Shown: piece after piece, positions 1 to 55,025 of the stretch
Position numbering within the stretch: the first letter of the stretch is position 1
Layout of the letters: each line of letters opens with the position of its first letter
Virus record (IMG/VR): IMGVR_UViG_2061766007_000596
Source: an uncultured virus (IMG/VR IMGVR_UViG_2061766007_000596)
Lineage: Duplodnaviria > Heunggongvirae > Uroviricota > Caudoviricetes
Direction: 5' to 3' (one strand)
Length of the DNA stretch: 64,000 nucleotides
The notes under the pieces: model-generated
Database searches by the model: none
Seen by the model: the letters and a program-made list of their open reading frames with translations, nothing else
Told to the model about the DNA's origin: nothing
Made by a program: the position numbers and the translations under genes

Positions 1-590
1 TCAATGTTTATCAGCTTTTCACAAGCTACCGTCCATAAATCACACATGGGATATTGTTTGCCCCTAAACTCAAAAATAGGTGTTAAAAAGTCGGGATTAT
101 CACTTTCATCATTTCCATTTATAATATCAATACATCTACTTTTTTGTTGTGCCTCCCATATATTATAATCTTCATTGTAAAGATGATAAATATATTTTTC
201 AGTGAATGGAATTGCTTTTTTAAAATCAAAGCAGGCATTATAGGCAGTCACCATATCACACAATTCGAGGTCGGCGGAAAGTTCTTCCGCAATTTTATTC
301 CATGTTTTTGCAAAAATCTGTTCATTGTCTAAAAGATTTATATAAATAGGTCTTTTTTCACGATAATAAGCAGTATTGAAAACACTAGGGACAAAAAATG
401 TTTCTTGCACAAGATAATTGACTTTTTTCATTATATTACCTTGTCTATCAATAATTACCCAGCCTATATCATATATAAGTGGTTTTGCGATAGCTATTTT
501 CTGTTTCTGTTTTGCGTCTTTGCAAAGGTCGTTTGCAAAAGGCAAAGTTGCGGTTTCTGTGTCAAGTACTAAATAAAATTTCTTTTTCAT
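1..590 (-). CDS. DEDDh/DnaQ-like 3'-5' exonuclease (runs off the window edge; absent from the ORF track)
   Basis: Manual translation from ATG at 590: MKKKFYLVLDTETATLPF...MVTAYNACFDFKKAIP..., open to position 1. ExoI (DTE) and ExoII (YNxxFD) motifs; AGGAG RBS and promoter at 631-659. Confidence 0.8.
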   Translation of the reverse strand, partial: MKKKFYLVLDTETATLPFANDLCKDAKQKQKIAIAKPLIYDIGWVIIDRQGNIMKKVNYLVQETFFVPSVFNTAYYREKRPIYINLLDNEQIFAKTWNKIAEELSADLELCDMVTAYNACFDFKKAIPFTEKYIYHLYNEDYNIWEAQQKSRCIDIINGNDESDNPDFLTPIFEFRGKQYPMCDLWTVACEKLINI

Positions 591-630
591 ACCTTTTGGT
601 ATCTCCTTTTCTGTTTTAATTTATATAGGT

Positions 631-659
631 ATTATAACAGATGATATACGCATAAGCAA
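631..659 (-). promoter_or_regulatory. sigma-A-type promoter
   Basis: TTGCTT-17-TATAAT upstream of the exonuclease. Confidence 0.7.
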
Positions 660-718
660 GCATCAGATTGCATAAAATTCCGGGACTTTTTTTGTGCAAT
701 CTGACAAGTAATTTTTTC

Positions 719-747
719 TTGACAAAATACCTGGAACATAGTATAAT
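719..747 (+). promoter_or_regulatory. consensus sigma-A promoter pointing into a type-I hairpin (candidate small-RNA promoter)
   Basis: TTGACA-17-TATAAT; no plus-strand ORF follows. Confidence 0.7.
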
Positions 748-755
748 GCAAAGCT

Positions 756-784
756 CGGTGCGTCTTGAACTGCAGACGCACCGC
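756..784. repeat. type-I intergenic hairpin, copy 1
   Basis: CGGTGCGTC-TTGAACTGCA-GACGCACCG. Confidence 0.9.
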
Positions 785-821
785 CAAAGAAAGAGAGGCA
801 GGGGCTTTTAGCCCCCACCTC

Positions 822-1286
822 TTAAACATTTGCGGAAGATATTAAATTTAATAGGGCGGTGATAATACTTTCATTTGCATTGATTGTGTCACCAAGTGTC
901 CACCCCTTGCGGACATTATCATTATCATCTATCAAAATTTGCAATCCACCTAATTTTCTAGTGCAATCAGCTTTAGTTGTGCCATATTTTACTAGATGAA
1001 TTTCATCATAAGGAAAATTATATTTTTCTAACCAAGCTAATTTTGCTTGTCTAACTAGATTATCATATTCTTTTGAACTTCCTTTAGATAACCAAGTTGT
1101 AACAATTATTTTCCACCCCTGTAATTTAAGAAATAGTAAAATTTCATTTAAAATTTCTGGGTCGTATATGGGTTCTGCTATTTCATAAGGTCGTGGATTT
1201 TCACTCCTTAAATCTTCAAGCCAATTTTCTACACCATATAAATCTGCGATTGTTCCGTCCATGTCAAAAACTAAAATTTTGTCCAT
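822..1286 (-). CDS. HAD-superfamily phosphatase / 5'-nucleotidase-like protein
   Basis: N-terminal FDMDGTIAD (DxD motif I), motif II Thr (IVTTW), LIDD motif IV. Confidence 0.8.
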   Translation of the reverse strand: MDKILVFDMDGTIADLYGVENWLEDLRSENPRPYEIAEPIYDPEILNEILLFLKLQGWKIIVTTWLSKGSSKEYDNLVRQAKLAWLEKYNFPYDEIHLVKYGTTKADCTRKLGGLQILIDDNDNVRKGWTLGDTINANESIITALLNLISSANV

Positions 1287-1400
1287 TTGTATCCCTTCCT
1301 TTCATATACTAATAATACTCTTTTTTTAGGATTTTGCATAGTGGCAAAATAGCCAAATATTCAATTAAATTTTTGTGCAAGTTGCCCTGGAAAAAAAAAT

Positions 1401-1430
1401 GCGGTGCGTCTTGAACTGCAGACGCACCGC
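1401..1430. repeat. type-I intergenic hairpin, copy 2
   Basis: GCGGTGCGTC-TTGAACTGCA-GACGCACCGC. Confidence 0.9.
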
Positions 1431-1484
1431 TCAATAAAAAGGGGCAAAGCTGTTACACTTTGCCCGTTTTATCAGAAACGTCGA

Positions 1485-1883
1485 TTATTTTTTCAGCGGT
1501 CTGCACTCAATTATGTCAATTTTGAACGTTTTTTCACCAATTTTTACTGAAATTAGTTTATTTTCATTTAAAATAGTGACTTTTTCTTGATAAATACTCT
1601 TTAAATTGTTTAAAATCCCATTAAAAAGCGTTTTTTTCTCATCAGATACCTTTTTTTCTCGTGGTTTTTCTGATTTTTTTCTAGGTTTTTGCACTGTTTC
1701 ATGCTCAATCCCAGCTTTTTTAGCTTTTTCGTCAAGTTCCTGAGCAATTTCATTAACTTTATAGCCATTATCATCTAACCATAGGTCAATAGCATCAGCC
1801 ATTGATATATCTAAAGTAGATACTAATTTATCAAGTTCTTTATCTGGGATAATAATTGTTTTATCATTTAGTGTGTATTTCAT
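1485..1883 (-). CDS. hypothetical protein, paralog of 3856-4203
   Basis: 132 aa; Lys-rich linker and a C-terminal segment that aligns by eye with 3856-4203. Confidence 0.75.
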   Translation of the reverse strand: MKYTLNDKTIIIPDKELDKLVSTLDISMADAIDLWLDDNGYKVNEIAQELDEKAKKAGIEHETVQKPRKKSEKPREKKVSDEKKTLFNGILNNLKSIYQEKVTILNENKLISVKIGEKTFKIDIIECRPLKK

Positions 1884-1924
1884 GCAACCCCCTTAGAGGG
1901 GAGGGCGTTTCCGCCCTCAACAAC

Positions 1925-2308
1925 TTAGTCAGTAGTTACGGAGAAATATGCTTTTCTCTTATCAACAGTTCGTGTGACTGTCTGTTCCTTAACAAGAGAA
2001 GTCAGCATAGATGTAACTTTTGGAAGTGAAGTTCCATTAGGGATACGGTTATCAGCCAAAACCTCACTTGCAGTTACAGGAGTGCCAAGTTCGGTCAGAA
2101 TATCAACAATAGTTGACTTCAATTCTTCATTGGCTTCGTCCTTTTTGCTAGGCTTTTTGTTTGCGGACTTCTTATCAATCTGAGTGATACGACTTTCAAT
2201 AAAAGTCACCATATCTTCTACAGAAATTTCAGTGTCCTCACCATTCAGCTTAGCGATAATTGCATTGTAGTACTCTTTCATTGTGGTTTTCTTTTCCATT
2301 TGCATCAA
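1925..2308 (-). CDS. putative winged-helix DNA-binding protein, paralog of 4433-4831
   Basis: C-terminal TASEV...SLPKVTSMLTSLVKEQTVTRTVDKRKAYF fits a wHTH pattern; start codon uncertain by a few codons. Confidence 0.7.
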   Translation of the reverse strand: MMQMEKKTTMKEYYNAIIAKLNGEDTEISVEDMVTFIESRITQIDKKSANKKPSKKDEANEELKSTIVDILTELGTPVTASEVLADNRIPNGTSLPKVTSMLTSLVKEQTVTRTVDKRKAYFSVTTD

Positions 2309-2331
2309 CCCTTTCTTTATTTGATATAATA

Positions 2332-2360
2332 ATTATAACATATTTTTTATAAAAGGTCAA
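2332..2360 (-). promoter_or_regulatory. sigma-A promoter
   Basis: TTGACC-17-TATAAT. Confidence 0.75.
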
Positions 2361-2480
2361 GAGCTTTTTAAAAAAATTTGCAACTTTTTTTAAGAGCGGT
2401 ATCAGTTACGTTTCCGATGTCCACTAGGTTGTTTCTGTCAACTACCTCAACAGGCTCAACTCTTGACCTCTTATGTACTA

Positions 2481-2509
2481 ATTATAAGCTATGTTGATAA
2501 TAAATGCAA
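2481..2509 (-). promoter_or_regulatory. sigma-A promoter (tandem, upstream of a ~90-nt non-coding segment)
   Basis: TTGCAT-17-TATAAT. Confidence 0.65.
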
Positions 2510-2556
2510 GTACAAAAATGGGAAAATTAGACCCAGAATTTTGTTCAAATTGCCGA

Positions 2557-2585
2557 TTGACAAAAACCCTGGCCTGTGGTACAAT
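2557..2585 (+). promoter_or_regulatory. sigma-A promoter pointing into type-I hairpin copy 3
   Basis: TTGACA-17-TACAAT with TG extension. Confidence 0.65.
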
Positions 2586-2592
2586 GCGAAAC

Positions 2593-2622
2593 TCGCAGCG
2601 TTTTGAACTGCAAACGCTGCGA
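2593..2622. repeat. type-I intergenic hairpin, copy 3
   Basis: TCGCAGCGTT-TTGAACTGCA-AACGCTGCGA. Confidence 0.9.
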
Positions 2623-2631
2623 CAAAAGAGG

Positions 2632-2922
2632 TCAACTATCGTTGACCTCAAAAAAAGTGTCAATATTTTCATCTAACCCTAAATTAAAAGCAACCCAATC
2701 TGCATCAAAATCATTTAAGATATAGAAATCAATAAGGTTTTTTAGGGGAAGATATTTAATTTCTTCTTGATATTCCTCGTCCCAGCCATTTTCTTCAGAA
2801 TATAGATTTAAAAGTTTTTCTCTTAATGTCTTTTCATCTTTTACATAAAAATTTTGTTGTCTAGTTATTTTAATCATTTTCTGATACTCCATTCTTATCA
2901 TAAAATTCTTGAAAACTTTCAC
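2632..2922 (-). CDS. hypothetical protein (true start probably MIKITR at ~2877, coupled to the upstream stop)
   Basis: ORF track; acidic phage-like composition. Confidence 0.6.
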   Translation of the reverse strand: MKVFKNFMIRMEYQKMIKITRQQNFYVKDEKTLREKLLNLYSEENGWDEEYQEEIKYLPLKNLIDFYILNDFDADWVAFNLGLDENIDTFFEVNDS

Positions 2923-3382
2923 TCATGCGAAGTGCCATGTTTTTAATTTTTCGTGGGTGCTTTTTTGCATAATTAACTGCCCATTGGGTAGCCATTATTT
3001 CATCAGGTAATGAAAAATATTGAAATTCATATTTCTTCCATGTTTCTTCATCATCTGTATTATTTATATCTTCATCTATTCTGATTTTTTCTTCATCACA
3101 AAATTTTTGTACTCCATAAGAAATACTTTGTATTGTTTTGTGGTGTCCTATCTCATGTAAAAACAAGAGAATGAAAGGATATTCAAAAGAATAGTCAAAA
3201 CGGTCTTTTACAAAATCAATTAACCATTCATATTCTATCGGTAAATTAATTCCAAAAGTAATACCATATTCACTAGGTAAATAAGAATATTCACCTGTTA
3301 ATTCTGCGGAAATGATGCCAAAAGGGGATAGTTCTTTAAGAATAGCACTATTTAATTTTTTCTTACCTTTAACTTTACTCAT
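2870..3382 (-). CDS. putative zincin-like metallopeptidase-domain protein
   Basis: HEIGH (HExxH) motif plus a downstream Glu (PDEIMA). Confidence 0.55.
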   Translation of the reverse strand: MSKVKGKKKLNSAILKELSPFGIISAELTGEYSYLPSEYGITFGINLPIEYEWLIDFVKDRFDYSFEYPFILLFLHEIGHHKTIQSISYGVQKFCDEEKIRIDEDINNTDDEETWKKYEFQYFSLPDEIMATQWAVNYAKKHPRKIKNMALRMSESFQEFYDKNGVSEND

Positions 3383-3496
3383 AATTATTACCTCTCTATA
3401 TTGAATATTATACTCTCATTTTAGGAGAATACAATAGTTGAAAATATACAAAAATCCAGGGCAAAAATTGTGCAATAATACTAATCTAGTGAAATT

Positions 3497-3526
3497 GCGT
3501 GGCGTTTTGAACTGCAAACGCCACGC
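3497..3526. repeat. type-I intergenic hairpin, copy 4
   Basis: GCGTGGCGTT-TTGAACTGCA-AACGCCACGC. Confidence 0.9.
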
Positions 3527-3590
3527 CAAGTAAAAGACCAGCCAAAAGGCTGGTCAAAGAGAGAAGGGGGGCGAACATTTAGATAAAAAA

Positions 3591-3663
3591 TGCGGTCGAG
3601 GAGGTTCGAACTCCCGACAACCTGATTAAAAGTCAGGTGCTCTGCCAACTGAGCTACGACCGC
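3591..3663 (-). tRNA. tRNA-Lys (anticodon UUU), CCA not encoded
   Basis: GCGGTCGTAGCTCAGTTGGCAGAGCACCTGACTTTTAATCAGGTTGTCGGGAGTTCGAACCTCCTCGACCGCA folds as a canonical cloverleaf. Confidence 0.95.
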
Positions 3664-3677
3664 TTGTGTGGCAAGGG

Positions 3678-3851
3678 TTACTGAACCCTTGTGTCAGCCA
3701 CCTTTCCGTTTGGGAACACCACGTTCTCAAACACAACGCGGAAGCCTGCAAGCTCCGCCTTGGCGCGGAATACTCCATCAGAGTTCCACTTCTTTACGAA
3801 CTCTGCACGGGTGTTGGGACAATCGTTACGGGTAAGTTTAAGATTAGTCAT
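3678..3851 (-). CDS. hypothetical protein (57 aa, MTNLKLTRNDC...)
   Basis: Start reassigned to ATG 3851 after an AAGGA RBS. Confidence 0.65.
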   Translation of the reverse strand: MTNLKLTRNDCPNTRAEFVKKWNSDGVFRAKAELAGFRVVFENVVFPNGKVADTRVQ

Positions 3852-3855
3852 AGCT

Positions 3856-4203
3856 TTAGTTTCCTTTCTTTTTCCTGTGTTTGATAAGTGATAGTGAGTA
3901 ATCATCATTCCCAATGCGGAAAGTGATTTCCTTTACTTCATTTACTATTTTAACATCTGTTACAGTAGTTGTCAAGAGTAAATTTTCAAGTTTTTTAATA
4001 AACTCTACTTTGATGGGGTCTTTCTTGACTTCACGTTTTTTACGTTCTTTAGGCTCTTCCGCTTGAGCATAGTCGGTGATACCTTTAGCTTTAATTTCCA
4101 TTTCCGCCATTTCTTCAGCTTCTTCTCTTGTTACAGGTTCACCATCTAATTCAGCTTGTTTCATAATTGAGTTAATCAGTTTTTCTTTTTTCTTCTCGTC
4201 CAT
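3856..4203 (-). CDS. hypothetical protein, paralog of 1485-1883
   Basis: 115 aa; own promoter TTGCAA-17-TATAAT at 4233-4261. Confidence 0.75.
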   Translation of the reverse strand: MDEKKKEKLINSIMKQAELDGEPVTREEAEEMAEMEIKAKGITDYAQAEEPKERKKREVKKDPIKVEFIKKLENLLLTTTVTDVKIVNEVKEITFRIGNDDYSLSLIKHRKKKGN

Positions 4204-4344
4204 ATTTAATTCCCCTTCTTTTTTATATAAATATTATAACAAAATTTTTTAAAATTTGCAAGTACAAATTTTGGGGGTCCAGGGCTTTGGTTTTTGTGCA
4301 ATTTTACTAATAAAAAATCTTGAGCCAGAGGTCTAACGTAAAAA

Positions 4345-4374
4345 TCGGCGCGTCTTGAACTGCAGACGCGCCGA
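4345..4374. repeat. type-I intergenic hairpin, copy 5
   Basis: TCGGCGCGTC-TTGAACTGCA-GACGCGCCGA. Confidence 0.9.
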
Positions 4375-4432
4375 CAAAGCAAAAGGGCTAGGAAACTCAG
4401 CCCTAGCCCTTGATACAAGGAACATTTACCGA

Positions 4433-4831
4433 TTAGGTTTCTTCGTCCTCACTTTCAGTGATGGAGAAGTAAGCCTTGCGCTTATCCACAACCCTAGTTA
4501 CGACCTGCTCCTTTACAAGTGCAGTAAGCATTGAAGTCACTTTAGGAAGTGAAGTACCATCAGGGATACGATTGTCCGTAAGGATTTCAGATGCGGTAAC
4601 AGGGTTTCCAAGCTCTGTGAGAATGGTTACGATGGTTGACTTCAAAACCTCGTTTTCCTCATTCTTCTTTGTGGGTTTCTTGTTTGCAGACTTCTTATCA
4701 ATCTGTGAAATACGGCTCTCAAGAAACTGCACGCTATCCTCAAGAGGAATAGTAGGCTCTCCGCCATTCAGTACGTTGATAATGTCTGTGTAATACTCTT
4801 TCATTGTGGTTTTCTTTTCCATAAGCAACAC
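4433..4831 (-). CDS. putative winged-helix DNA-binding protein, paralog of 1925-2308
   Basis: Closely similar to 1925-2308 (MEKKTTMKEYY...SLPKVTSMLT.LVKEQ...VDKRKAYFS). Confidence 0.75.
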   Translation of the reverse strand: MLLMEKKTTMKEYYTDIINVLNGGEPTIPLEDSVQFLESRISQIDKKSANKKPTKKNEENEVLKSTIVTILTELGNPVTASEILTDNRIPDGTSLPKVTSMLTALVKEQVVTRVVDKRKAYFSITESEDEET

Positions 4832-4872
4832 CTCTTTCTTAAAAATGTTTTTTGGTTTCTTTTGATATATTT

Positions 4873-4901
4873 ATTATATCAAATTATTATTCAGTTGTCA
4901 A
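4873..4901 (-). promoter_or_regulatory. consensus sigma-A promoter (second promoter TTGACT-17-TACAAT at 5025-5053)
   Basis: TTGACA-17-TATAAT. Confidence 0.8.
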
Positions 4902-5147
4902 GAAAAATTATAACTTTTTTTTATTGAGGTTTTCTCCTCGGAATTGACTGCCCAAGTTTGCCGTCTAGTGCGCGCCCTAGCGAGGTTGTCTTGATACTGT
5001 TAAGTCGTTTCCTTTGATAATAAGATTGTATCAAAAAAAGTAATTAAAGTCAACAAAATAATAAACAAAGTTCCAGGATTTCCGGGGCTTGTTTTTGTAC
5101 AAAATGCACAAACAAAAAATTTCTGAGGTCTGTGTTGTAGTGAAAAT

Positions 5148-5177
5148 GCGCGGCGTTTGGCACTGAAAACGCCGCGC
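5148..5177. repeat. type-I intergenic hairpin, copy 6 (variant loop)
   Basis: GCGCGGCGTT-TGGCACTGAA-AACGCCGCGC. Confidence 0.85.
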
Positions 5178-5196
5178 CCAAAGGCCCGGCAATTTT

Positions 5197-5523
5197 CTAT
5201 GTTTTTATAATTTCCATAGGTGGCAATTCAATAGGACAATTTGCTAAAAATTTTTCAAAAGTATAATCTTTGTTTCGTTTTAATCCTTTTGGCACTTCAT
5301 ACCATTCTGTGTTTTTAACCTGTGTGTATCCTAGTCGTTTATAGTAAGAATGTATAGCACCTTCCGCAATCGAGTCAAAACCATCGGCAATATTTGCAAT
5401 TTCAATACATTTTGCTAGCGGATTATGTGTTTTGTAAGTGTTCATTCTTTTTTGTAGGTCTTTTGTTATTCCTACTTTTACAAGAGTTTTTGCTCCTCTA
5501 CTATCTTTTATTAAGTATAGCAT
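5197..5523 (-). CDS. GIY-YIG-superfamily (T5orf172/MUG113-like) nuclease-domain protein
   Basis: LYLI...VKVGITKDLQKRMNTYKTHNP...AEGAIH...TEWY pattern. Confidence 0.7.
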   Translation of the reverse strand: MLYLIKDSRGAKTLVKVGITKDLQKRMNTYKTHNPLAKCIEIANIADGFDSIAEGAIHSYYKRLGYTQVKNTEWYEVPKGLKRNKDYTFEKFLANCPIELPPMEIIKT

Positions 5524-5804
5524 TACTCAATTGCTCCCTTCGCAGTTTCCGCCATTTTATTTATTGCTTCTTTAAAATCATTATAAGGATTGTTAATATC
5601 TTCATATTTAACACCCAAGGATTGAACGAACATTACAACTCCCATACCTCTATCTAAAGTAGCCTTGCGACTCATTTCAATTAGTTTTCTTTCATCTTCT
5701 CTTGATGGAATAGATGGAGCGGAAGTTTGACGAGATATAAAAGCTCTAAAATCTTTGTGCTCAGTATTAAGATAATCAAGTGTTTTTTCAAGTATTGTAT
5801 TCAT
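5523..5804 (-). CDS. hypothetical protein
   Basis: 93 aa, AAGGAG RBS, coupled to the downstream gene. Confidence 0.7.
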   Translation of the reverse strand: MNTILEKTLDYLNTEHKDFRAFISRQTSAPSIPSREDERKLIEMSRKATLDRGMGVVMFVQSLGVKYEDINNPYNDFKEAINKMAETAKGAIE

Positions 5805-5816
5805 AATAATATCTCC

Positions 5817-5987
5817 TTAAATAAAAATAAATAAAAATTTGCTAGTTACTTTGTACCCTTTAACAGGCTTATCCATGTAGAACATTAACATATCGCCTAC
5901 ACCTTTGTGAGTGGCACTATCTATAATACGGATAGTTCTACCATAGATAAGTTTAGTATTTTTGTCAATCCAATCATTAACTGTCAT
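5817..5987 (-). CDS. small hypothetical protein (56 aa; below the ORF-track cutoff)
   Basis: MTVNDWIDKNTKLIYGRTIRIIDSATHKGVGDMLMFYMDKPVKGYKVTSKFLFIFI; GAGAGG RBS; TATAAT just upstream. Confidence 0.65.
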   Translation of the reverse strand: MTVNDWIDKNTKLIYGRTIRIIDSATHKGVGDMLMFYMDKPVKGYKVTSKFLFIFI

Positions 5988-6102
5988 ACCTGGTACCTCT
6001 CTTCTTATATACTATTATACTCTAATATGGGAAGAATACAATTGTTCAAAATAGATAAAAATCGGGGTATAAATTTATGAAAGGTGCATAATAATGGAAA
6101 AT

Positions 6103-6132
6103 GCGTGCCGACGCGGAGCATTGTCGGCACGC
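6103..6132. repeat. type-I intergenic hairpin, copy 7 (different 10-nt loop)
   Basis: GCGTGCCGAC-GCGGAGCATT-GTCGGCACGC; same size and context. Confidence 0.8.
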
Positions 6133-6151
6133 TCAAAGAGAAAGAGAGGGC

Positions 6152-6385
6152 TTAACCCTCTCTTTTATATACTCTTACTTTGTAAGTAGCATAACCGTAT
6201 TTAGATAAATCATTGAGTTGCCATCTTCTTTGCTGACATATTTTTTTGATGCCATCTTTTTGAAGTTCTTTTTTGAAATTCTTATTCGTTGAATAATCGG
6301 CATCTGTGTACTGTTCACGTTTAACTATGCAACTTACAGGCTTATAAGCCTTACTATATAAAGTTACTTGATATTCTTTAATCAT
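6152..6385 (-). CDS. hypothetical basic protein
   Basis: 77 aa, coupled to the upstream gene. Confidence 0.7.
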   Translation of the reverse strand: MIKEYQVTLYSKAYKPVSCIVKREQYTDADYSTNKNFKKELQKDGIKKICQQRRWQLNDLSKYGYATYKVRVYKREG

Positions 6386-6659
6386 TGACAGTCACCTCTT
6401 TTACTTTCAAAATAATGTCATCATTTCGGGTATAGTCTGTACAGTTATTATCAAAATAGAGTTTTACTGTTTGACCTCTATAATAATTTGTATCAGATAC
6501 ACCCCATAAATATCCTGCTCCATCTACAAAAGTAGTACCTGTTTCATCAACTGTATAAACATCAGCTATTACACTGTAATGAGTATCAGCATAACCGCCG
6601 ATAATCAATAGACCTAAAATAAAGATGATTGCTAAAAGTCCTGTAAAAAAGTTTTTCAT
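6378..6659 (-). CDS. small membrane-anchored protein
   Basis: N-terminal hydrophobic helix FFTGLLAIIFILGLLIIGG. Confidence 0.7.
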   Translation of the reverse strand: MKNFFTGLLAIIFILGLLIIGGYADTHYSVIADVYTVDETGTTFVDGAGYLWGVSDTNYYRGQTVKLYFDNNCTDYTRNDDIILKVKEVTVND

Positions 6660-6689
6660 TTTGTTTTCCCTCTTTTCTCTTTTTATAAA

Positions 6690-6774
6690 GGAGAGACCGC
6701 TAAGTTTATAGGCGGTAGATACCTAGGGCCGTTCTTCGTTTATAGGAACGGGATAAACCTCTTGCCCTCTCTCC
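6690..6774 (-). ncRNA. candidate structured 5' leader RNA
   Basis: Outer stem GGAGAGA/TCTCTCC encloses two hairpins, both with loops starting CTATAAAC; promoter TTGATT-17-TATAAT at 6783-6811. Confidence 0.55.
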
Positions 6775-6905
6775 ATGATTTAATTATACGCTCATAGTTT
6801 TTAAAAATCAACCTGGAACTTGCACAAATTTAAGGAAAAAAATGCCCCGGTTCTTGTGCAAAATGCACAAACAAAAAACCCTAAAGCCATTTGCTTAGTT
6901 AAAAT

Positions 6906-6935
6906 GCGCTGCGTTTTGAACTGCAAACGCAGCGC
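6906..6935. repeat. type-I intergenic hairpin, copy 8
   Basis: GCGCTGCGTT-TTGAACTGCA-AACGCAGCGC. Confidence 0.9.
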
Positions 6936-6939
6936 TCAA

Positions 6940-7224
6940 CAAAAGGGAGAGTCTTCTATACTCTCCCTGGCGATTTTATGAAGTTGGTAGCCGACCCTGC
7001 TCGGCAAACACCTTAGGTATCCATTTCCACTCTAGTAGGAAATCGCTGCTAATCTACTGTGCAAGCTCACCCCTGTGCACAAGGTACGACAGACTTAAAG
7101 GGCACTAAATGTTATTTAAGAGTAGCTTACTAGAGGCTCACGCACTCTCCGCCCGATTGGCTTGTCGGTCTATCCAAATGGAAGTTTCTCGCTCCCTCAT
7201 AGGAGTGTCAGTCATCTCCTCGAC
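6940..7224 (-). ncRNA. candidate ~285-nt structured non-coding RNA
   Basis: Promoter TTGTGC-17-TATCAT (7231-7259); intrinsic terminator GGGAGAG/CTCTCCC+T-run (6940-6967); many short stems; no ORF of 60 aa or more. Confidence 0.55.
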
Positions 7225-7355
7225 ATAATTATGATAACATATCTAGGGTAATGGCACAATAGTAATAATGCACAAAAATACGGGATTCTGATTGTGCATT
7301 TTGCTAGTTAGTTTTCAAATAAAAAAAGACCCGGCTATTCCAGTAAAGCAAAATA

Positions 7356-7382
7356 CGTCGCGCAACGTCCCATCGCGCGACG
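7356..7382. repeat. degenerate type-I hairpin (another at 8219-8258)
   Basis: CGTCGCGC-N11-GCGCGACG in the same position next to a terminator. Confidence 0.6.
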
Positions 7383-7448
7383 CTCAGACAAAAGGAGAGC
7401 CCCCAATTTCTTGGGGGCAATGGGAATATAAGAGGTAAAATAAAATTG

Positions 7449-7643
7449 TTAGACCCTAGCTACAAGGCGGTGAAGAGGTTTTATAGGGTTTTCATCAATC
7501 TCCTTGTTAGTATAAACAGGAACTACTGTGCAACCGCCCATCTCTTCAGCTTTTTTCTTTGCTTCGGGATAAGAAGTAATTCCCTCAGCTACGATAATAG
7601 AATTATGTCTGTTACTAACTATATTGTAGGTTAATTTTGTCAT
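7449..7643 (-). CDS. hypothetical protein
   Basis: 64 aa, GAGGAG RBS, promoter TTGACA-17-TATAAT at 7671-7699. Confidence 0.7.
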   Translation of the reverse strand: MTKLTYNIVSNRHNSIIVAEGITSYPEAKKKAEEMGGCTVVPVYTNKEIDENPIKPLHRLVARV

Positions 7644-7720
7644 TTTAAAATATCTCCTCTCTTTTTTTCTATTATATCAAAAATTTAATAATTTGTCAAC
7701 ATTTAGGGGCAGGAGCTCTA

Positions 7721-7951
7721 TTAAAAGAGCTCCATAGTTCCTTCAACTCCATATTCCGCAGTTTCTACAGGGTATTCCTCAGTGATATACTGCTCAAGAG
7801 TATGATAGCCTGTGCGGATATATAGAACGCTTTCAAGAACGTGTGTCCAAGAATTACCTACTAAATTGAAGGCTAGATTTAATTCCTCGGCAGTGGCTAT
7901 TGAGTCCTCTACCATAAAATCGTACATTCTCATTTCTTCGGGTGTCATCAT
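7721..7951 (-). CDS. hypothetical protein (start reassigned to MMTPEE)
   Basis: GAGAGG RBS upstream of ATG 7951; promoter at 8096-8124. Confidence 0.65.
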   Translation of the reverse strand: MMTPEEMRMYDFMVEDSIATAEELNLAFNLVGNSWTHVLESVLYIRTGYHTLEQYITEEYPVETAEYGVEGTMELF

Positions 7952-8359
7952 AGTAATTGTCCTCTCTCTCTTTATTATTGCGGTTTCCACTAGGTTATTG
8001 TTCTCCAATAATCAGCTTTGTCAAGTTGAAAATCTAAACATTAAGAGCTAGTTATCTCACTGAGAAGCTCCACCGCCTTGCTCCTCTGTAAGTATAGAAT
8101 ACCATATCTTAATAAGGATTGCAAGCTAAATACTGCACAAAATTTTGGGAACCTGGCGCCCCGGTTTTTGTACAAATTGCATAAATCAAACATTTGAGAA
8201 AGGTCTAATAATCAAAAAGCGGCGCGCTTCCTTGATAACGCATTCGTAACCGCGCCGCCGCCCTAACGAAATTACGTATATTTTTGTGCGGTATTGCGTA
8301 TACGCTATTTTGATAAAAAAGAGCGGTATTTAGATAACCGCCCTTTATTGAGTTAACTA

Positions 8360-9581: not shown

Positions 9582-9619
9582 TATAGCTTATCACATCATA
9601 CCTAAAATGTCAAATTTGA

Positions 9620-10225
9620 ACTTCCGCATGGTTACTGGGTTTGAGGGGTGTCAAAATCCTGGAAGGCGCATGGTTGACAGGAAAATCGTAGGTCCAAACC
9701 CGCAATCCTGCATGGTTGAGCCATTTCAGAATCTTCTACGTTTTGCACAAAAATTTTTCATTTTTTTGTACAAAATGCACAAGAGGGTCTCAATACGCAT
9801 GAATACTGAATTTGCAGGGTCTCAAGTCCTGAGATCCGCTTAAATAGGGGCTTTCAAGGCTCTACCCCTTGGAATTCCGCATGTTTACTGGCTTTGCAGA
9901 CCATGGGTTGGAAAACCGCATGAATACTGTGTTCTGAAACCCGCATGAATACTGCGTTTGAGGCCTGTCTGCAAACCCACTGTTCATGCGGCTTCTGAAA
10001 CCCGCATGGATACTGAGGTTGCTCGCAAAGCTGCATGAATACTGGGTTTGCAGACACCCCTGGAACCCGCATGAATACTGGGGTTGCGCAAAGCCGCATG
10101 GGATCTGTGTTTGAGGGGTGTCCTGCAACTCGCATGGATACTGGGTTTGCATTGTGGGACCCCGCAAACCCGCATGAATACTGAGTTTTCGATCGCCGGA
10201 AACCCGCATGGTTACTGGGTTTGGG
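9620..10225. repeat. array A of AAACCCGCATGRATACTG(GGTTT) motifs
   Basis: About 16 copies by hand count, irregular spacing (mostly 25-42 bp), at least one inverted. Confidence 0.9.
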
Positions 10226-10410
10226 AACACGCCGCTCGTCGAAACGCTACGCTGGCGCTCGCGGCGCGATGACCAATAGGATTGCTTTTATTTTAGGATT
10301 AAAAAATTTTATTTGAAACAGTTTAGCAAAATTTTAAAACAAACAAAGCAAACAAACAAATCACATTGCGACTGTTATGATCTGTGTACGATCCACGCAG
10401 ATCATAATAT

Positions 10411-10437
10411 AAAAGAGAGGATAAATCCTCTCTTTTT
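10411..10437. terminator. bidirectional intrinsic terminator
   Basis: AAAAGAGAGGAT-AA-ATCCTCTCTTTT. Confidence 0.7.
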
Positions 10438-10482
10438 TAGATTACTCAGTGATGAATAAATCACTGTAGTAATATATTTTAT

Positions 10483-10773
10483 TTATATTTGAAATTCATA
10501 GAAATTCATTTCATTACAAGAGCGTATTAACATCTCCTTATAATACATTTTTGGAATATAAAACTCTTTATTGAGTCTTATTCCTTTACTATCTACTTCC
10601 ATACCCAGTCCCCATATATCCTCACATTTACACATAATTACATAGGTATTATATGGTGAATAGTATTCTTTTTCATAGCGAAGAATTTTAATATTTTCAC
10701 ATGAAAGATATATTGATAAATCCTCCGCCATCATATCATTAAGTCCTCTGAAAATGATTATTGATTGATCCAT
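10483..10773 (-). CDS. hypothetical protein
   Basis: 96 aa, GGAGA RBS after a type-II hairpin. Confidence 0.7.
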   Translation of the reverse strand: MDQSIIIFRGLNDMMAEDLSIYLSCENIKILRYEKEYYSPYNTYVIMCKCEDIWGLGMEVDSKGIRLNKEFYIPKMYYKEMLIRSCNEMNFYEFQI

Positions 10774-10820
10774 GTTTTCTCCAATCTGACGGTTTAACCA
10801 CCCACCGCCAAGGTTGTTAA

Positions 10821-10994
10821 TTAGTAGTTATTTTGTGTTTGGTTATAATAGTTAAAATCCCTAATAATAGCCCTTCTATTTTCAGGGGTATCAGGAAGAT
10901 TATACCCACTACGGTTATCTCCTAAAAACAGCTCACCAAAATCATTAACTCCACAAGATAAACCTGTCTTTTTGTTTTCTTTAAAAATTTCCAT
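10821..10994 (-). CDS. hypothetical protein (start reassigned to MEIFKE)
   Basis: AAGGAG RBS. Confidence 0.65.
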   Translation of the reverse strand: MEIFKENKKTGLSCGVNDFGELFLGDNRSGYNLPDTPENRRAIIRDFNYYNQTQNNY

Positions 10995-11104
10995 TATTGC
11001 TCCTTTCTTATGAAAGGGGGACTTCCTTGTCCCCACTTATATGTTAGATAGGTGGCGGACTTTGAGCCGTCCGCCATGGCAAGATATTCAGTTAAAGTAT
11101 TTCA

Positions 11105-11383
11105 TTAGTCGAAATACTTATGATAAGAAGAACAGCCAATCAATCCCTGGTTGAAATTGATTCTAGTTATAGTATGTTCGCTAAAGTGGCTTTCAATTGC
11201 AATTCCATAAGAACTAGAGAATACCCTTGCTCTAGGCATTTCAATCCATAATGTTGTAGGCATGAGTATAGTAGATTTACCACTATCAATTATATAACTG
11301 CCTTTTGGAAATACATGAGCTATTTTAGCCTTTGCTATCCTTTTTGAAGATAAGTCATCAAAACTAAGTTGTATTGTTACCAC
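11105..11383 (-). CDS. hypothetical protein
   Basis: 92 aa, GTG start, GAGGG RBS; promoter TTGACA-17-TAATCT at 11482-11510. Confidence 0.6.
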   Translation of the reverse strand: MVTIQLSFDDLSSKRIAKAKIAHVFPKGSYIIDSGKSTILMPTTLWIEMPRARVFSSSYGIAIESHFSEHTITRINFNQGLIGCSSYHKYFD

Positions 11384-11513
11384 TCTTTTTCCCTCTTTTC
11401 TCTTATTTAGTTTTCATTGTGCGTGTCCATTTTGGAAACGAGGACTTATGTCTGTGGTGCCTTGCCCCTCGGGACACTTATAGATTACTACTTTTGCAAC
11501 CTTTTGTCAACCT

Positions 11514-11925
11514 CAATGTTTATGCGGTTTTCAAGCCCCGGCTTTTCTGAAACCCGCATGAATACTGCATTTCAGGAGCATAAAATTTCTTTTTGTATCT
11601 TTTGCACAAAGTTGTCATATCAAAATCTCATTTTGATTGTGAATTTTGCACAAAACCCACATCTGTTCTAAAGGTGCCCGCAAACCCGCATGAATACTGC
11701 ATTTGCGAGAAATGGCTCAACCATGCGGCCTGGCCCGCAAACCCGCATGAATACTGCATCCTAGAACGCAGGCGTGGTGCGGTTTTCCGGCTCAGGCCGC
11801 ATGGTTACTGCGTTTGCAAAAAGGGGTACTCGCAAAGCCGCATGGTTACTGCATTTCAGGACTTGAGAGCCCGCAAACCCGCATGAATACTGCGTTTGCA
11901 AACCCGCATGGATACTGGCTTTGCG
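11514..11925. repeat. array B of AAACCCGCATGAATACTG motifs
   Basis: About 9-10 copies, both orientations. Confidence 0.9.
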
Positions 11926-12130
11926 AAATTTAGGGCCGTAATTGGGCTCGACCCACAGGGTACCCCGACCCATAACGGCCCAAGCAACTAATATATCAAC
12001 ATTCAACATCTAAACAAACAATTGTGCAAACAAACAATTAAATCACATTGTGATATTGTTATATTGTTATGATCTGTATATGATCTATGTAGATAGCATA
12101 GGCAAGGGGCCTTATTCAGGCCCCTTTGTA

Positions 12131-12319
12131 TTAGCCATACAGTTTGGTACTTATCCAATCTATAAGAATATACATATAATCCTCTTCCTCTTTTGTCATT
12201 CGAATCTTGCTTTGTGTATATTCCTCATACAGCTCATCAATTTTCTTGGCTGCATATTCATAATGGTGTCCTGCAGCTGCTGCCCTAACTAAGTTTAACC
12301 TATCCATTATTGTCATCAT
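12131..12319 (-). CDS. small helical protein, paralog of 8360-8548 (start reassigned to MMTIMD)
   Basis: AGGAGA RBS after a type-II hairpin; terminator at ~12104-12128. Confidence 0.75.
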   Translation of the reverse strand: MMTIMDRLNLVRAAAAGHHYEYAAKKIDELYEEYTQSKIRMTKEEEDYMYILIDWISTKLYG

Positions 12320-12370
12320 ATTATCTCTCCTAACTGACGGTTTAACCACCCACCGCCAAGGTTATTTGTT

Positions 12371-12637
12371 TTAGTAAATGTATTCAATATCATTGAAATC
12401 TATTTCAACTTCAGTTTCTTCATTGATTATGATTTTAATAACTTTATTGATATAATCAATGATGAACTGCTGCTCATCAGCATCGAGTACTAACGTTCTA
12501 TACGAGTCTCCATACACGCTATCACTTATGCCTAATTCCTTGCGCAATTCCCTTTGAGTCTGTACAAATCCTATTAACTGCAATCTGTACTTCCTTATAG
12601 CTTCTTTTTTTACTAATACATAGATAGTTGTTTCCAT
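12371..12637 (-). CDS. hypothetical protein
   Basis: 88 aa, AGGAG RBS; promoter TTGACA-17-TAAGGT at 12686-12714. Confidence 0.7.
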   Translation of the reverse strand: METTIYVLVKKEAIRKYRLQLIGFVQTQRELRKELGISDSVYGDSYRTLVLDADEQQFIIDYINKVIKIIINEETEVEIDFNDIEYIY

Positions 12638-12789
12638 TCCTTTTCTCCTTTTCTGTTTTTGTTTGTTCCCTCTTGGGATAATACTACCTTATCAAAAAAT
12701 GTTTTCATTGTCAACACCTTTTTTCAAAAAAAGTTTTTTTTCTTTCAACTTTGCATGAAATCTGACTTTGTTAGCTCAATACCTCAAGA

Positions 12790-13045
12790 TCCTGATGAAT
12801 ACTGTGTTTTTTAACATGCCCTCTCAGGAATGGCTCAACCATGCGGGGTTTCCCGCAAACCCGCATGAATACTGCGTTTGCAAATGCAGCAACCATGCGG
12901 CTTTCAGCGCCAGGCCGCATGAATACTGACTCCGCAAATGAAGGTGCCTTAGAGCCCGCATGAATAGTGGGTTTCGGGAGTTCAGACGCCGCAAACCCGC
13001 ATAAACACTGGGCTCGCAAACCCGCATAGATACTGGCTTTGCGGA
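12790..13045. repeat. array C of AAACCCGCATGAATACTG motifs
   Basis: About 8 copies, both orientations. Confidence 0.9.
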
Positions 13046-13615
13046 ATCTCGGGCCCTGTGGCTCGGCCAGGGGTTTGATGGGCACTCGCCTACGGGCCCA
13101 GCAAAGGTCCTATGTCCCATGCCTGGTCGGACCCGCGCACCCGCATGTCCTTTAGTCTTTTACCTTTATATCTTCTCTTGTTTTCTCTTTTATTATTAAA
13201 ACTCATTGTGTTGTTCTTTGTCCTTTCTCTCTCATCTCACAACAATCGATTGAACAACACTGTCTCTCTTGTCCCATCAATCTTATCAATTCTTCTCTTT
13301 TGTTCTTTTGTGGCGGTTCTTTTGTGGAGGGTAGGCAGCAGATCGCTTGGCTCTACGCAGCGTTTGTCTACAGAGCATTCGGGGGGTATATTTCAGGATT
13401 TTCGTCTATTGAAAGAGTAGAGTGCTTTTGGCTCATACTCCCCCACACCAAAAATTTTTCTCTTTTTTCCATATCCCTTTCTATCCCAAAAATTTTTCTC
13501 TTTTTCCCATATCCCTTTTTAAGGAAAACCGCTTCCCGCATTTATCTCCATCACCCAATTTTAAAAATACCTATACGCATGACCAAAACCGCCTTCCTCT
13601 TCCTCTTAATCGTAC

Positions 13616-13695: not shown

Positions 13696-14853
13696 ATGGA
13701 GATTAGACACATGGAAAATGAAAATAATAAAACTCAATCTTCTCCTAGTGAAGGCGAAGCCTTCACCTATATTAAAATGGATTATTCATTAGAAACTGCA
13801 GAAGAAAGAGTTAAGAAAGTAGAAGAAATTATAGCTAATACTCCAGAAGAAAAACTTACCCCCTATTACTTAGAAAAATTAGGAGAATACATAGTAATAC
13901 CAGCAAATAAAAAAGAACGATTAGAGAACAAATATTTAACAACAAATCACATGGTAACTGTAAATAAAAGGGAACTTTCTTTTGAGGGTTTAATAGAAAA
14001 AATTTCAGGTGAAAATGGAGAAAACCGCGATGCTATTCATAGCATGATAGCCAATGATAAAAACATCATCTTCTCCCCCAAAATAGGAATAACACAAGAA
14101 GACATAGAAGAAATACCAGGGATGCGGGAATTGGTTGATGCAATCAAGGAAGTAGAAGCCCAGAAAAAAGCAGCTACCGGCCGCCGCGCTCTCCTTTTAG
14201 GAAAACAACTTATTCAGATGCGGGAAGACCAATACGTACTAAAGGCCGCTTACCGCAAGCCCATCCGCATGATGAATATAAAGAAAACTTATTCCTTCTT
14301 AGACCTTAGTGAAAAAATAACAATAGATGAACAAGGGGTTCCCGCAAGTACAGGTTATCTTAATCTTTTTACACCAACTCATATCTCTCTCTTGTTGTGT
14401 AACTATTCTAGAATTAAAGAAGAGAGTTGGGATAGATTTGAAAGTGATATTCGTTGGATGATGGAAGATCTTGATGCTCTTGTTGACAAGACATTCAAGG
14501 ACAAATTCCCTTTATATTACGACCTAATCATCTATAAAATAGATGGAAAGTCAAATGCGGAAATCCAAGATAAATTAGCGGTTGACCATGGTATTCGTCA
14601 TTCAGTAGAATATATAAGTGCATTATGGCGTAATAAAATACCTAAAATGATTGCAGAAACCGCAATTAAAGATTGGTTAGTTTGGCACTATACATTTGAA
14701 GAACGCGGGAAGTGGAAACGTTGTTCAAAGTGTGGACAAATTAAATTAGCTAGTAACTACTTTTTTTCAAAAAATAATACAAGTAAAGATGGTTGGTATT
14801 CTATTTGTAAAGAATGTAGAAATTCTAAGAATAAAAAAATACAACCTAGATAA
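13696..14853 (+). CDS. DNA-binding protein with a sigma-region-4-like HTH and a C-terminal Zn ribbon
   Basis: LIIYKIDGKSNAEIQDKL...SVEYIS segment; CSKC...CKEC. Confidence 0.5.
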   Translation: MEIRHMENENNKTQSSPSEGEAFTYIKMDYSLETAEERVKKVEEIIANTPEEKLTPYYLEKLGEYIVIPANKKERLENKYLTTNHMVTVNKRELSFEGLIEKISGENGENRDAIHSMIANDKNIIFSPKIGITQEDIEEIPGMRELVDAIKEVEAQKKAATGRRALLLGKQLIQMREDQYVLKAAYRKPIRMMNIKKTYSFLDLSEKITIDEQGVPASTGYLNLFTPTHISLLLCNYSRIKEESWDRFESDIRWMMEDLDALVDKTFKDKFPLYYDLIIYKIDGKSNAEIQDKLAVDHGIRHSVEYISALWRNKIPKMIAETAIKDWLVWHYTFEERGKWKRCSKCGQIKLASNYFFSKNNTSKDGWYSICKECRNSKNKKIQPR

Positions 14854-14867
14854 AAAGGAGGTACTAG

Positions 14868-16106
14868 ATGGGAGAACAACATTTTTGTCCTAAATGTCGT
14901 AGGACTATGGATGAAAAAAATTTTTATACATATAAAGATGGTACCAAATGTGAATTATGCAAAGCTTGTTTAACTATGCATATTAATAATTTTGATCCTT
15001 CTACTTTTATGTGGTTACTTGAAAAATTTGATGTTCCTTATATAGAGCATGAATGGAATGTTCTTAGAGATAGAGCATATGCTAAAGATCCTTACAAAAT
15101 GACTGGTATGAGTGTATTTGGTAAATATCTTTCAAAAATGAAACTAAAACAATGGAAGATGTATACGTGGGAAGATACAGAAAGATTAAAGGCGGAAGCT
15201 GAAGAAAAAGCTAAATTGTATGGTAAACCACAAGATATTGCTCAACAACAGTTAGAAGATATGAAAGCAGCTTATGAAAATGGAGAAATTTCAGAGGCTC
15301 AATACTTAACATATGCGGAAACCCATGCTCCAGAACCTGTTGCATCACCGGAAGTAACGAGTGCGGAAACTCATTTAAATAAATCCAGTTCCCAGTCATC
15401 TCCATATCCAGTAAATAATACAGAATTTGAAGTTGTAGAATTGCCGGATGTAGGAAATGAATTAACTGAAGAAGATAAAATTTATCTTGCTATGAAATGG
15501 GGAAGGTTGTATCGTCCTGATGAATGGGTTACATTAGAGCAAACTTATAATGATTTTATGAATTCATTTGATATACAAGGGGCGGCACGTATTGATACAT
15601 TAAAGATGATATGTAAAACATCTTTAAAAATGAATCAAGCTATAGACTGCGGGGATGTGGAATCTTATCAGAAACTTTCAAGAGTTTATGATGCTATGAT
15701 GAAATCCGCAAAGTTTACAGAAGCTCAGCGTAAGGAAGAAAAATCTGGAGATTTTGATGCGGTTGGTCAAATTGTTTTCTTTGCTGAAAAAGAAGGCGGG
15801 AAGATTGATCGTTATAAATTAGATACTCCATTAGATAAAATAGATGAAGCTATTTTGGATTTAAAGAAATATAATCATGATTTGATTGTAAATGATCCAG
15901 GTATCTCACAAATGCTTGAAAATCTCATCAAGAGAAGAGATAGTGCAATAAGTCAAAAGGAAGATTTAAAGGCTGCGGAGGCGGAAGGCCTTGATTATGT
16001 TCCTATTAATGATGAAGATTATGAAGAATTTAATAAGTTATTAGAGGAAAGAGACCAAGTATCCGCAATGGAGGTAGAAGAAGATGAGCCTACAGAATCT
16101 GCTTGA
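14868..16106 (+). CDS. Zn-finger protein, possible terminase small subunit
   Basis: N-terminal CPKC...CKAC; overlaps the terL start; functional call is positional. Confidence 0.45.
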   Translation: MGEQHFCPKCRRTMDEKNFYTYKDGTKCELCKACLTMHINNFDPSTFMWLLEKFDVPYIEHEWNVLRDRAYAKDPYKMTGMSVFGKYLSKMKLKQWKMYTWEDTERLKAEAEEKAKLYGKPQDIAQQQLEDMKAAYENGEISEAQYLTYAETHAPEPVASPEVTSAETHLNKSSSQSSPYPVNNTEFEVVELPDVGNELTEEDKIYLAMKWGRLYRPDEWVTLEQTYNDFMNSFDIQGAARIDTLKMICKTSLKMNQAIDCGDVESYQKLSRVYDAMMKSAKFTEAQRKEEKSGDFDAVGQIVFFAEKEGGKIDRYKLDTPLDKIDEAILDLKKYNHDLIVNDPGISQMLENLIKRRDSAISQKEDLKAAEAEGLDYVPINDEDYEEFNKLLEERDQVSAMEVEEDEPTESA

Positions 16107-18315: not shown

Positions 18316-18349
18316 AATATAGATGAAGGATTTAAAGGAGGTATCTTTT

Positions 18350-54865: not shown

Positions 54866-55025
54866 AAGAGAGGATATTATATCCTCTCTTTTTTCTTTTG
54901 GACAATAATAANNNNNNNNNNNNNNNNNNNNNNNNNNNNNNNNNNNNNNNNNNNNNNNNNNNNNNNNNNNNNNNNNNNNNNNNNNNNNNNNNNNNNNNNN
55001 NNNNNNNNNNNNNNNNNNNNNNNNN

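Follow-up and report, generated by a model that had tools for sequence, protein, structure and literature searches.

The left arm of the phage genome studied here raises the question of what is done by the palindromes that stand between its small minus-strand gene units. The window, that is the whole stretch of 64,000 nucleotides analyzed, belongs to the IMG/VR record IMGVR_UViG_2061766007_000596 and is part of a large uncultured tailed phage from the rumen. A first-pass annotation of this DNA had described ten hairpins, two of them as degenerate and six with an identical loop, and had proposed a signal of structure plus loop, such as an attC/REP-like recombination site, an extruded hairpin on incoming DNA or a small RNA. 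Our analysis indicates that the palindromes likely mark transcription boundaries rather than cut-and-paste sites. They are members of a family present in many related large gut and rumen phages, in which the geometry is conserved and not the loop. The palindrome is real and, judged by its conservation, functional.

Nine perfect Watson-Crick hairpins of 8-11 base pairs are present at the positions first noticed (Table 1). In 60 first-order Markov simulations of positions 1-8300 neither such a hairpin nor the loop decamer arose. The hairpins at 1401-1430, 2593-2622, 3497-3526, 4345-4374, 5148-5177 and 6906-6935 each have 11 bp and an 8-nt loop once a T-A pair closes, whereas 756-783 has 10 bp, 6103-6132 has 10 bp and a 10-nt loop, and 7356-7382 has 8 bp and an 11-nt loop. 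A covariance model was trained on 30 copies, including the nine from the window; it recovered all nine hairpins, and its sole further match in the window was a weak one at 8214-8266. This last copy, previously called degenerate, is not simply decayed but a long member of the family (38 bp). The window elements mostly measure 28 bp rather than the 27 bp of the family.

The loop TTGAACTGCA occurs exactly six times (765, 1411, 2603, 3507, 4355 and 6916), always on the plus strand and nowhere else in the 64 kb, in agreement with the first-pass annotation. Its further claim that the loop is a conserved signal did not hold. The loop pattern gave no match in IMG/VR, and real loop-bearing hairpins were present in three of 18 metagenome loci fetched with it (L052, L055 and L066, rumen contigs, on new stems) and in none of 50 host-genome loci; the other 15 metagenome matches and all 50 host-genome matches had stems of at most 5 bp, and a universal loop signal was rejected. 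Loop identity is 0.38 between loci and 0.45 within a locus. The loop of the 7356 copy is of a type also seen in L052, L066 and L035. A weak profile is discernible, with a pyrimidine at position 11, a purine at 12 and T hardly ever at 16. In some relatives the window loop is present as its reverse complement, although this profile is strand-asymmetric. The six common-loop copies are alike at most of their 18 central bases. The identical loop is probably a local lineage spread by duplication and constrained only by the weak pyrimidine-purine pattern at positions 11-12.

The wider family was studied in related loci retrieved via the sigma gene (51) or the phosphatase gene (13), via the loop pattern as given above, and via a promoter-plus-dyad pattern that does not require pairing (119 viral and 58 host-genome loci). 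These loci overlap and kin are not independent; counts across loci refer to unique sequences. Loci L133-L251 were picked with the spacer-13 pattern, which inflated the peak at 13 in later pooled counts, though neither the peak at 23/24 nor the gap before it. The family is marked by its geometry, its covariation, a one-turn step in spacing, the order of the junction and confinement to one block of the genome.

The geometry consists of two CG-N3-CG boxes, the N3 of one pairing with the N3 of the other. Among loci not chosen by the dyad pattern, CG-bounded hairpins number 98 at 27 nt and 27 at 28 nt, with at most 13 at any other length, and 125 lie in 591 kb of early arm compared to three in 489 kb of the structural side. 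Conservation extends to the second CG of either arm, which was not imposed and yet is present in 91-93 of 98 hairpins. A scan by sequence alone, covering the loci fetched by protein homology, three fetched by loop and the window's own arm, found 94 unique cases with spacer 13 and 21 with spacer 14, and none on the 489 kb structural-gene side; 316 of 345 N3 positions were Watson-Crick although pairing was not required. In viral promoter-plus-dyad matches all three N3 pairs are formed in 82 of 107. The selection on pairing postulated earlier is supported by 97 both-sided changes, compared to 32 in shuffles, and by a mutual information of 1.0-1.2 bits for partner columns against at most 0.18 for slid columns, both with controls that leave kinship in.

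Paired dyads have spacers of 13 (179), 14 (20), 11 (13), 23 (12) and 24 (13), while spacers 15-22 gave 0, 0, 2, 1, 0, 0, 0 and 2 (five in all) and spacers of 26 and above none. In the spacer-11 forms the pairing has slipped by two, and most of them keep CG at 26-27. The box centers thus lie 20-21 or 30-31 bp apart, i.e. two or three DNA turns, mostly two. Both modes reappear when CG is left out of the definition: the lengths of 245 elements include 113 at 27 nt, 77 at 23-26, 20 at 28-29, five at 30-34 and 23 at 35-38, whereas nearby terminator hairpins form a continuum over 17-32 nt. The 10-nt step would not be expected of a hairpin alone, because a stem longer by 5 bp would carry its loop on the opposite face; it would be expected of a duplex recognized from one side. 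Since the halves sit mostly two and sometimes three turns apart, the palindromes likely dock a putative protein.

In five near-complete relatives the model found 21, 12, 12, 9 and 2 matches, each set in one block and one orientation, so that four of the five carry 9-21 copies arranged in this way. Of the 30 fully paired matches in GTDB host genomes, 27 have these early phage proteins as neighbors, and the element is therefore phage-borne. Four named phage records (E3, H1, KKP_3916 and Phass-1) contained no clear element, with 0, 0, 1 and 5 matches against 0, 0, 2 and 3 in controls. A description of the element was found neither in Rfam nor in the literature searched, most subscription journals being outside its reach; the motif in PMC3547956 proved to be an unrelated Lactococcus motif. 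What appears to be new here is the CG-N3-CG code with its one-turn step within a promoter/stem-loop boundary cassette.

The junction is built in the order forward promoter, TTTGTGCA dyad, backward promoter, palindrome, terminator. Neither the plus-strand promoters directed into the hairpins nor the upstream TTTGTGCA half-site had been noticed in the earlier annotation. The promoters at 719-747 and 2557-2585 are oriented opposite to the genes and are themselves gene-less. A backward promoter is intact before two window palindromes; before the remaining eight it has decayed, although the palindrome there is preserved. In the aligned junctions at 4345, 5148 and 6906 the spacing is kept with both hexamers decayed, and at 1401 and 3497 the junction is shortened. 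The TTTGTGCA dyad is common to forward and backward promoters, and the minus-strand unit promoters stand back to back with the dyads; dyads of the form TGCACAAA/TTTGTGCA between back-to-back promoters were observed at nine places (Table 1). As first described, the palindromes lie between the minus-strand terminator of one unit and the promoter region of the next, and the arm is a string of self-contained units. They adjoin the terminator of the oncoming unit, except at 5148 where no separate terminator was found; a T5orf172/GIY-YIG-like nuclease gene (5197-5523) ends 20 nt from this palindrome. In a minus-strand terminator scan five copies and part of the 8220 copy pass, whereas 756, 2593, 3497 and 6103 do not.

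The same arrangement recurs in the related loci. Strong backward promoters are followed by a hairpin in 267 of 376 cases, compared to 115 of 1069 forward promoters, and by the four-CG element in 128 of 376 compared to 19 of 1069. The hairpin begins 7-8 nt past the -10 box, that is about at the start site, in 43 of 49 promoter-linked cases. The distance from dyad to palindrome is 45-47 or 55-57 nt where the promoter is present, again a one-turn step, and 21-23 nt in deleted forms. No promoter accompanies 109 of 236 elements. Promoter-less copies pair as well (231/252 and 75/75) as promoter-bearing ones (335/381), arguing against the element being only a 5' cap. An A-rich 5' flank is more frequent in promoter-less copies (34/69 versus 11/45, p = 0.011), and a U-tract able to end the backward transcript is present in only nine of 62 adjacent terminators. 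A gene-less forward promoter takes the terminator's place next to the palindrome in 26 of 236 elements, so that two promoters face each other across it (L066, 2040-2095; also L045, L126 and L127).

The explanation that we tentatively favor is that the palindrome is a transcription-boundary module, in which the phased CG-N3-CG boxes would be read on the duplex by a putative protein and the RNA hairpin by the host polymerase. Host polymerase would start from the backward promoter at the foot of the hairpin, fire into it and meet the oncoming polymerase at the terminator. According to the accessible parts of the sources, read-through in E. coli is blocked where polymerases collide head-on at a palindromic hairpin (bioRxiv 2022.10.23.513370; PMC13082048). 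Where the promoter has decayed, the hairpin itself or a protein on the palindrome could stop read-through. A protein reading two phased boxes on duplex DNA may act as a roadblock or operator, which would explain why the palindrome survives without the promoter. A candidate binder is a winged-helix-like protein encoded twice in the window and in 113 other loci, a core multi-copy gene of these early arms. Its fold was assigned from sequence searches, the best match of the profile being Hop2 (E 0.0012), with weak matches to ZBP1 (E 0.13 or worse); a scan with the single protein confirmed no relatives. In both window paralogs the predicted recognition helix departs from the family consensus, and their genome is one in which 28-bp elements prevail over those of 27 bp. 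Z-DNA was considered and rejected, since the CG steps are out of alternating phase and the ZBP1 matches are weak.

Several observations weigh against a duplex-reading protein. All four CG steps at spacer 13-14 are present in just 128 of 267 promoter-linked hairpins; the remaining 139, a number that includes long forms, miss at least one. Lengths of 23-26 nt make up 77 of 245 when CG is not imposed, the spacer-13 peak was inflated by the retrieval of L133-L251, and the long class (25 sequences from about 11 records) may descend from a few insertions. A duplex binder leaves the pairing of the N3 bases and of the inner stem unexplained, and the 10-nt step is also compatible with the length of an RNA-DNA hybrid. 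The winged-helix candidate is encoded in loci without a strict element too, namely in nine of the 13 such loci that measure at least 8 kb. G-U wobbles, compared by sequence, do not distinguish RNA from DNA (10/708 versus 15/810, p = 0.55); a fold-based comparison had looked positive (30/515 in terminators), an effect gone under the sequence-based definition.

A broader proposal, possible although more doubtful, is that these phages form a widespread clade using an insulator, a counter-promoter capped by a phased palindromic operator. It would be read by a putative phage-made (possibly multi-copy winged-helix) or host protein, and would partition, and maybe time or help draw in, the first-entering terminal repeat. 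Such an insulator would amount to a roadblock and programmed-collision device of natural origin, with a novel recognition code in which the boxes stand two or three turns apart. Were this correct, every boundary between early operons would carry an opposing promoter and a phased operator supplied by the phage itself, and a natural polymerase collision would become directly testable in a unit of ~150 bp. The one-turn rule would then provide a sharp experiment as well as a bait for the putative protein, and in an abundant group of uncultured phages the palindromes would serve as a marker of the early block, which is probably repeated at the termini.

Many of the same data bear on a device read by the polymerase alone, in which the hairpin protects the 5' end of the backward RNA and serves the forward RNA as a second terminator or pause, the CG steps acting as pauses at hybrid length with no other binder. 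The pause consensus is G-10 Y-1 G+1, and positions 11-12 are mostly pyrimidine-purine and strand-asymmetric. The hairpin starts close to the start site, five window copies score as minus-strand terminators, and the A-rich flank of promoter-less copies would be a U-tract for the oncoming polymerase; moreover, 5' stem-loops stabilize RNA, according to the part of PMC3997798 that was accessible. Nevertheless, ordinary terminators of the same arms have no fixed length and no fixed CG steps, and the 8220 copy retains phased boxes despite a poorly paired interior (fold z -2.1). We consider this explanation, the main rival, rather unlikely. That the backward promoters instead make stable small RNAs, with a 5' hairpin and an antisense terminator, which act in trans as decoys or regulators with the loops as variable seeds, we regard as improbable. 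Perfect dyad-phased promoters without a gene and the same loop on new stems in L052, L055 and L066 would fit such RNAs, as would the small RNAs from the phage K terminal repeat described in the accessible part of PMC9241854. However, the scarcity of plus-strand U-tracts in adjacent terminators (9/62) leaves the transcript without a defined 3' end, eight of ten window copies keep the element without the promoter, and there is no Rfam match. Mimicry of a tRNA minihelix or T-loop was rejected (the bases past the stem vary and no T-arm pairs are formed), as was that of a CRISPR repeat (no resemblance to familiar repeat types, no Rfam match).

The confinement of the elements to one block, the halving of contig depth near 12,860 and the accumulation of contig ends of relatives upstream of the sigma gene would also fit a role in DNA entry: in a long terminal repeat, backward promoters pointing inward at one end would let host polymerase pull the DNA in, and the palindromes would act as checkpoints, either extruded or bound by protein. 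Entry of T7 and T5 DNA offers a precedent. This is decidedly improbable, as the promoters have decayed in eight of ten copies, repeat arrays may break contigs at that very spot, and the depth comes from one sample and is not copy number. A neutral relic, in which template switching would keep the palindrome of a duplicated junction perfect, would account for six copies alike at most central bases and for loops more alike within than between loci. It is nevertheless very unlikely, for loop bases are near saturation while length is quantized, and the palindrome stays perfect beside decaying promoter hexamers. The attC/REP-like site proposed at the outset, moving gene units as cassettes by site-specific recombination, is likewise very unlikely. 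In its favor, the units are self-contained, their order differs among relatives, and pairing is kept with few wobbles on either strand. However, none of the five near-complete relatives has a match to PF00589, PF00239 or PF01797 (tyrosine, serine and Y1 enzymes), while control searches gave matches, and the nine short stems in the window have no extrahelical bases. The 62 close pairs compared yielded 39 gain/loss events with 78 ends. Four of these ends are at most 25 nt away from an element (null 3.1, p = 0.35), compared to 29 close to forward promoters (null 20.6, p = 0.02); the events are in part common to several pairs, and long elements fall outside the element definition used for this count. 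No clean hairpin-to-hairpin joint was seen among the 15 of 73 contig joints listed, the joints having short sides and unread middles. With none of these recombinases in the five relatives and breakpoints that avoid the hairpins, attC/REP-like recombination is not supported. Breakpoints near forward promoters fit homologous shuffling of the promoter early stem-loop (PeSL) type, and the units may well reshuffle by ordinary homologous exchange in the repeated junction.

The transcription-boundary module, which we continue to prefer, is set in an arm of mostly unassigned small minus-strand genes, left of ~13 kb, with one tRNA-Lys; this tRNA was the sole match of the window to Rfam 15 at gathering score, the palindromes matching no RNA family. 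The terminase has its best named, annotated matches in Firmicutes phages (41-45% identity). Contig depth in one bovine gut sample, possibly the source, the two runs of which contain 99% of the left-arm words, was 26-35 left of 12,881 compared to 15.9 for a contig starting at 12,855 in the first run, and 23-27 compared to 13.9 at the same step in the second. Furthermore, 16 of 51 related contigs end at most 1.7 kb upstream of the sigma match, and none of the 51 as close downstream. The depth step and the clustered ends at ~12855-13300 hint at a possible right boundary of a long direct terminal repeat, resembling the SPO1 terminal region of 12.4 kb as given in the accessible part of PMC6873191.

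The early genes at 3-590, 822-1286, 1485-1883 and 3856-4203 each recur in ~100 related loci, forming a conserved core within the variable arm. Beside the suspected repeat boundary, three GC-richer intergenic blocks (9616-13050) hold ~23 copies of a CGCATGAATACTG-type repeat, which could be origin, packaging or entry-stop sites. A second dispersed repeat (family D8) of ~41 nt has five copies (8554, 8815, 9167, 10778 and 12326), located at the start or end of genes in that outer part of the early arm which the palindromes no longer reach. Two AT-richer hairpins 44 kb apart (10375-10436 and 54864-54892) have an 11-base arm in common.

Table 1. Coordinates of palindromes, promoters, dyads, terminator-like sites and genes in the window.
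Position	Strand	Feature	Remarks
756-783		palindrome, 28 bp	two CG-N3-CG boxes, spacer 14; common loop; begins 8 nt past perfect plus-strand promoter
1402-1429		palindrome, 28 bp	common loop; promoter gone, short junction, 22 nt from dyad half at 1372
2594-2621		palindrome, 28 bp	common loop; 46 nt from dyad half at 2540
3498-3525		palindrome, 28 bp	common loop; promoter gone, short junction, 23 nt from dyad half at 3467
4346-4373		palindrome, 28 bp	common loop; promoter hexamers decayed, dyad spacing preserved (45 nt)
5149-5176		palindrome, 28 bp	different loop; promoter decayed, spacing preserved (47 nt); itself scores as minus-strand terminator just past gene 5197-5523
6104-6131		palindrome, 28 bp	third loop; promoter decayed; followed by terminator-like hairpin 6141-6165
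6907-6934		palindrome, 28 bp	common loop; promoter decayed, spacing preserved (46 nt)
7356-7382		palindrome, 27 bp	modal family length, spacer 13; terminator-like site at 7399-7418
8220-8257		long palindrome, 38 bp	spacer 24; boxes paired, interior poorly paired (7 paired bases; fold z -2.1)
719-747	+	gene-less backward promoter	TTGACA-17-TATAAT, 12/12
2557-2585	+	gene-less backward promoter	TTGACA-17-TACAAT, 11/12, extended -10
691-698		TTTGTGCA half of upstream dyad	partner half at 669
669-698, 1372, 2540, 3467, 4293, 5094, 6821-6860, 7269-7298, 8134-8174		TGCACAAA/TTTGTGCA dyads	between back-to-back promoters
162-189, 2332-2360, 3947-3975, 4233-4261, 4873-4901, 5025-5053, 6783-6811, 7671-7699	-	host-type promoters of gene units	
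794-822	-	intrinsic-terminator-like site	of HAD-phosphatase unit
1442-1465	-	terminator-like site	
2628-2649	-	terminator-like site	
3536-3555	-	terminator-like site	closes unit with tRNA-Lys
4383-4411	-	terminator-like site	
6944-6968	-	terminator-like site	
822-1286	-	HAD-phosphatase unit	
1925-2299	-	winged-helix-like protein	paralog of 4433-4822; candidate binder
3591-3663		tRNA-Lys	
4433-4822	-	winged-helix-like protein	second paralog
13696-14853	+	sigma-factor-like gene	start of structural arm
16084-17826	+	terminase	start of structural arm
18323-19972	+	portal	start of structural arm

When compared with known systems, the palindromes resemble integron attC sites in having variable sequence with kept pairing between gene units. 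The attC sites carry R''/R' boxes (RYYYAAC/GTTRRRY), which are absent here, where perfect stems are bounded by CG steps instead. They are also served by the tyrosine recombinase IntI, which has no PF00589 counterpart in the relatives, and cassettes end inside the site, whereas here breakpoints lie elsewhere and the units carry their own promoters. REP/RAYT or IS200-type elements likewise share a variable hairpin with kept pairing between units; they differ by a nearby Y1 HUH enzyme (no PF01797 match in the relatives), by a GTAG motif that is lacking here, and by many copies in host chromosomes, where the matches to our element adjoin phage early proteins. With phage N4 the window has in common DNA hairpins in the early region. 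The hairpin promoters of the N4 virion polymerase have short stems and 3-nt loops and replace sigma-type promoters, whereas the loops here measure 3-13 nt or more and follow perfect sigma-A-type promoters.

The SPO1 host-takeover module and the long terminal repeats of Kayvirus (PMC6873191, PMC9241854) are similar in their many short early operons, strong host promoters and a terminal region of ~12 kb; the accessible parts of these papers contain no such palindrome or backward promoter, and the terminal repeat is only hinted at in our phage. The collision-driven bidirectional terminators of E. coli, as described in the accessible text of bioRxiv 2022.10.23.513370 and PMC13082048, would resemble our junctions in that polymerases converge on a palindromic hairpin where two units meet. 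Both of their promoters serve distant genes, whereas here the opposing promoter is dedicated, lies ~40 nt from the terminator and has often decayed. PeSL cassettes of T4-type phages, to judge from the parts of PMC2839356 and PMC4122927 that could be consulted, likewise combine a repeated host-type promoter and a stem-loop between small early genes of a variable region, and their gain/loss ends cluster near promoters; of the 78 ends counted here 29 lie near forward promoters (p = 0.02) but four near the hairpin, in events that are not independent. In these cassettes promoter and stem-loop face the downstream gene and the position of the stem-loop varies. In the phage studied here, by contrast, the hairpin follows a gene-less backward promoter, has a quantized length and fixed CG boxes, and stands beside a separate terminator.

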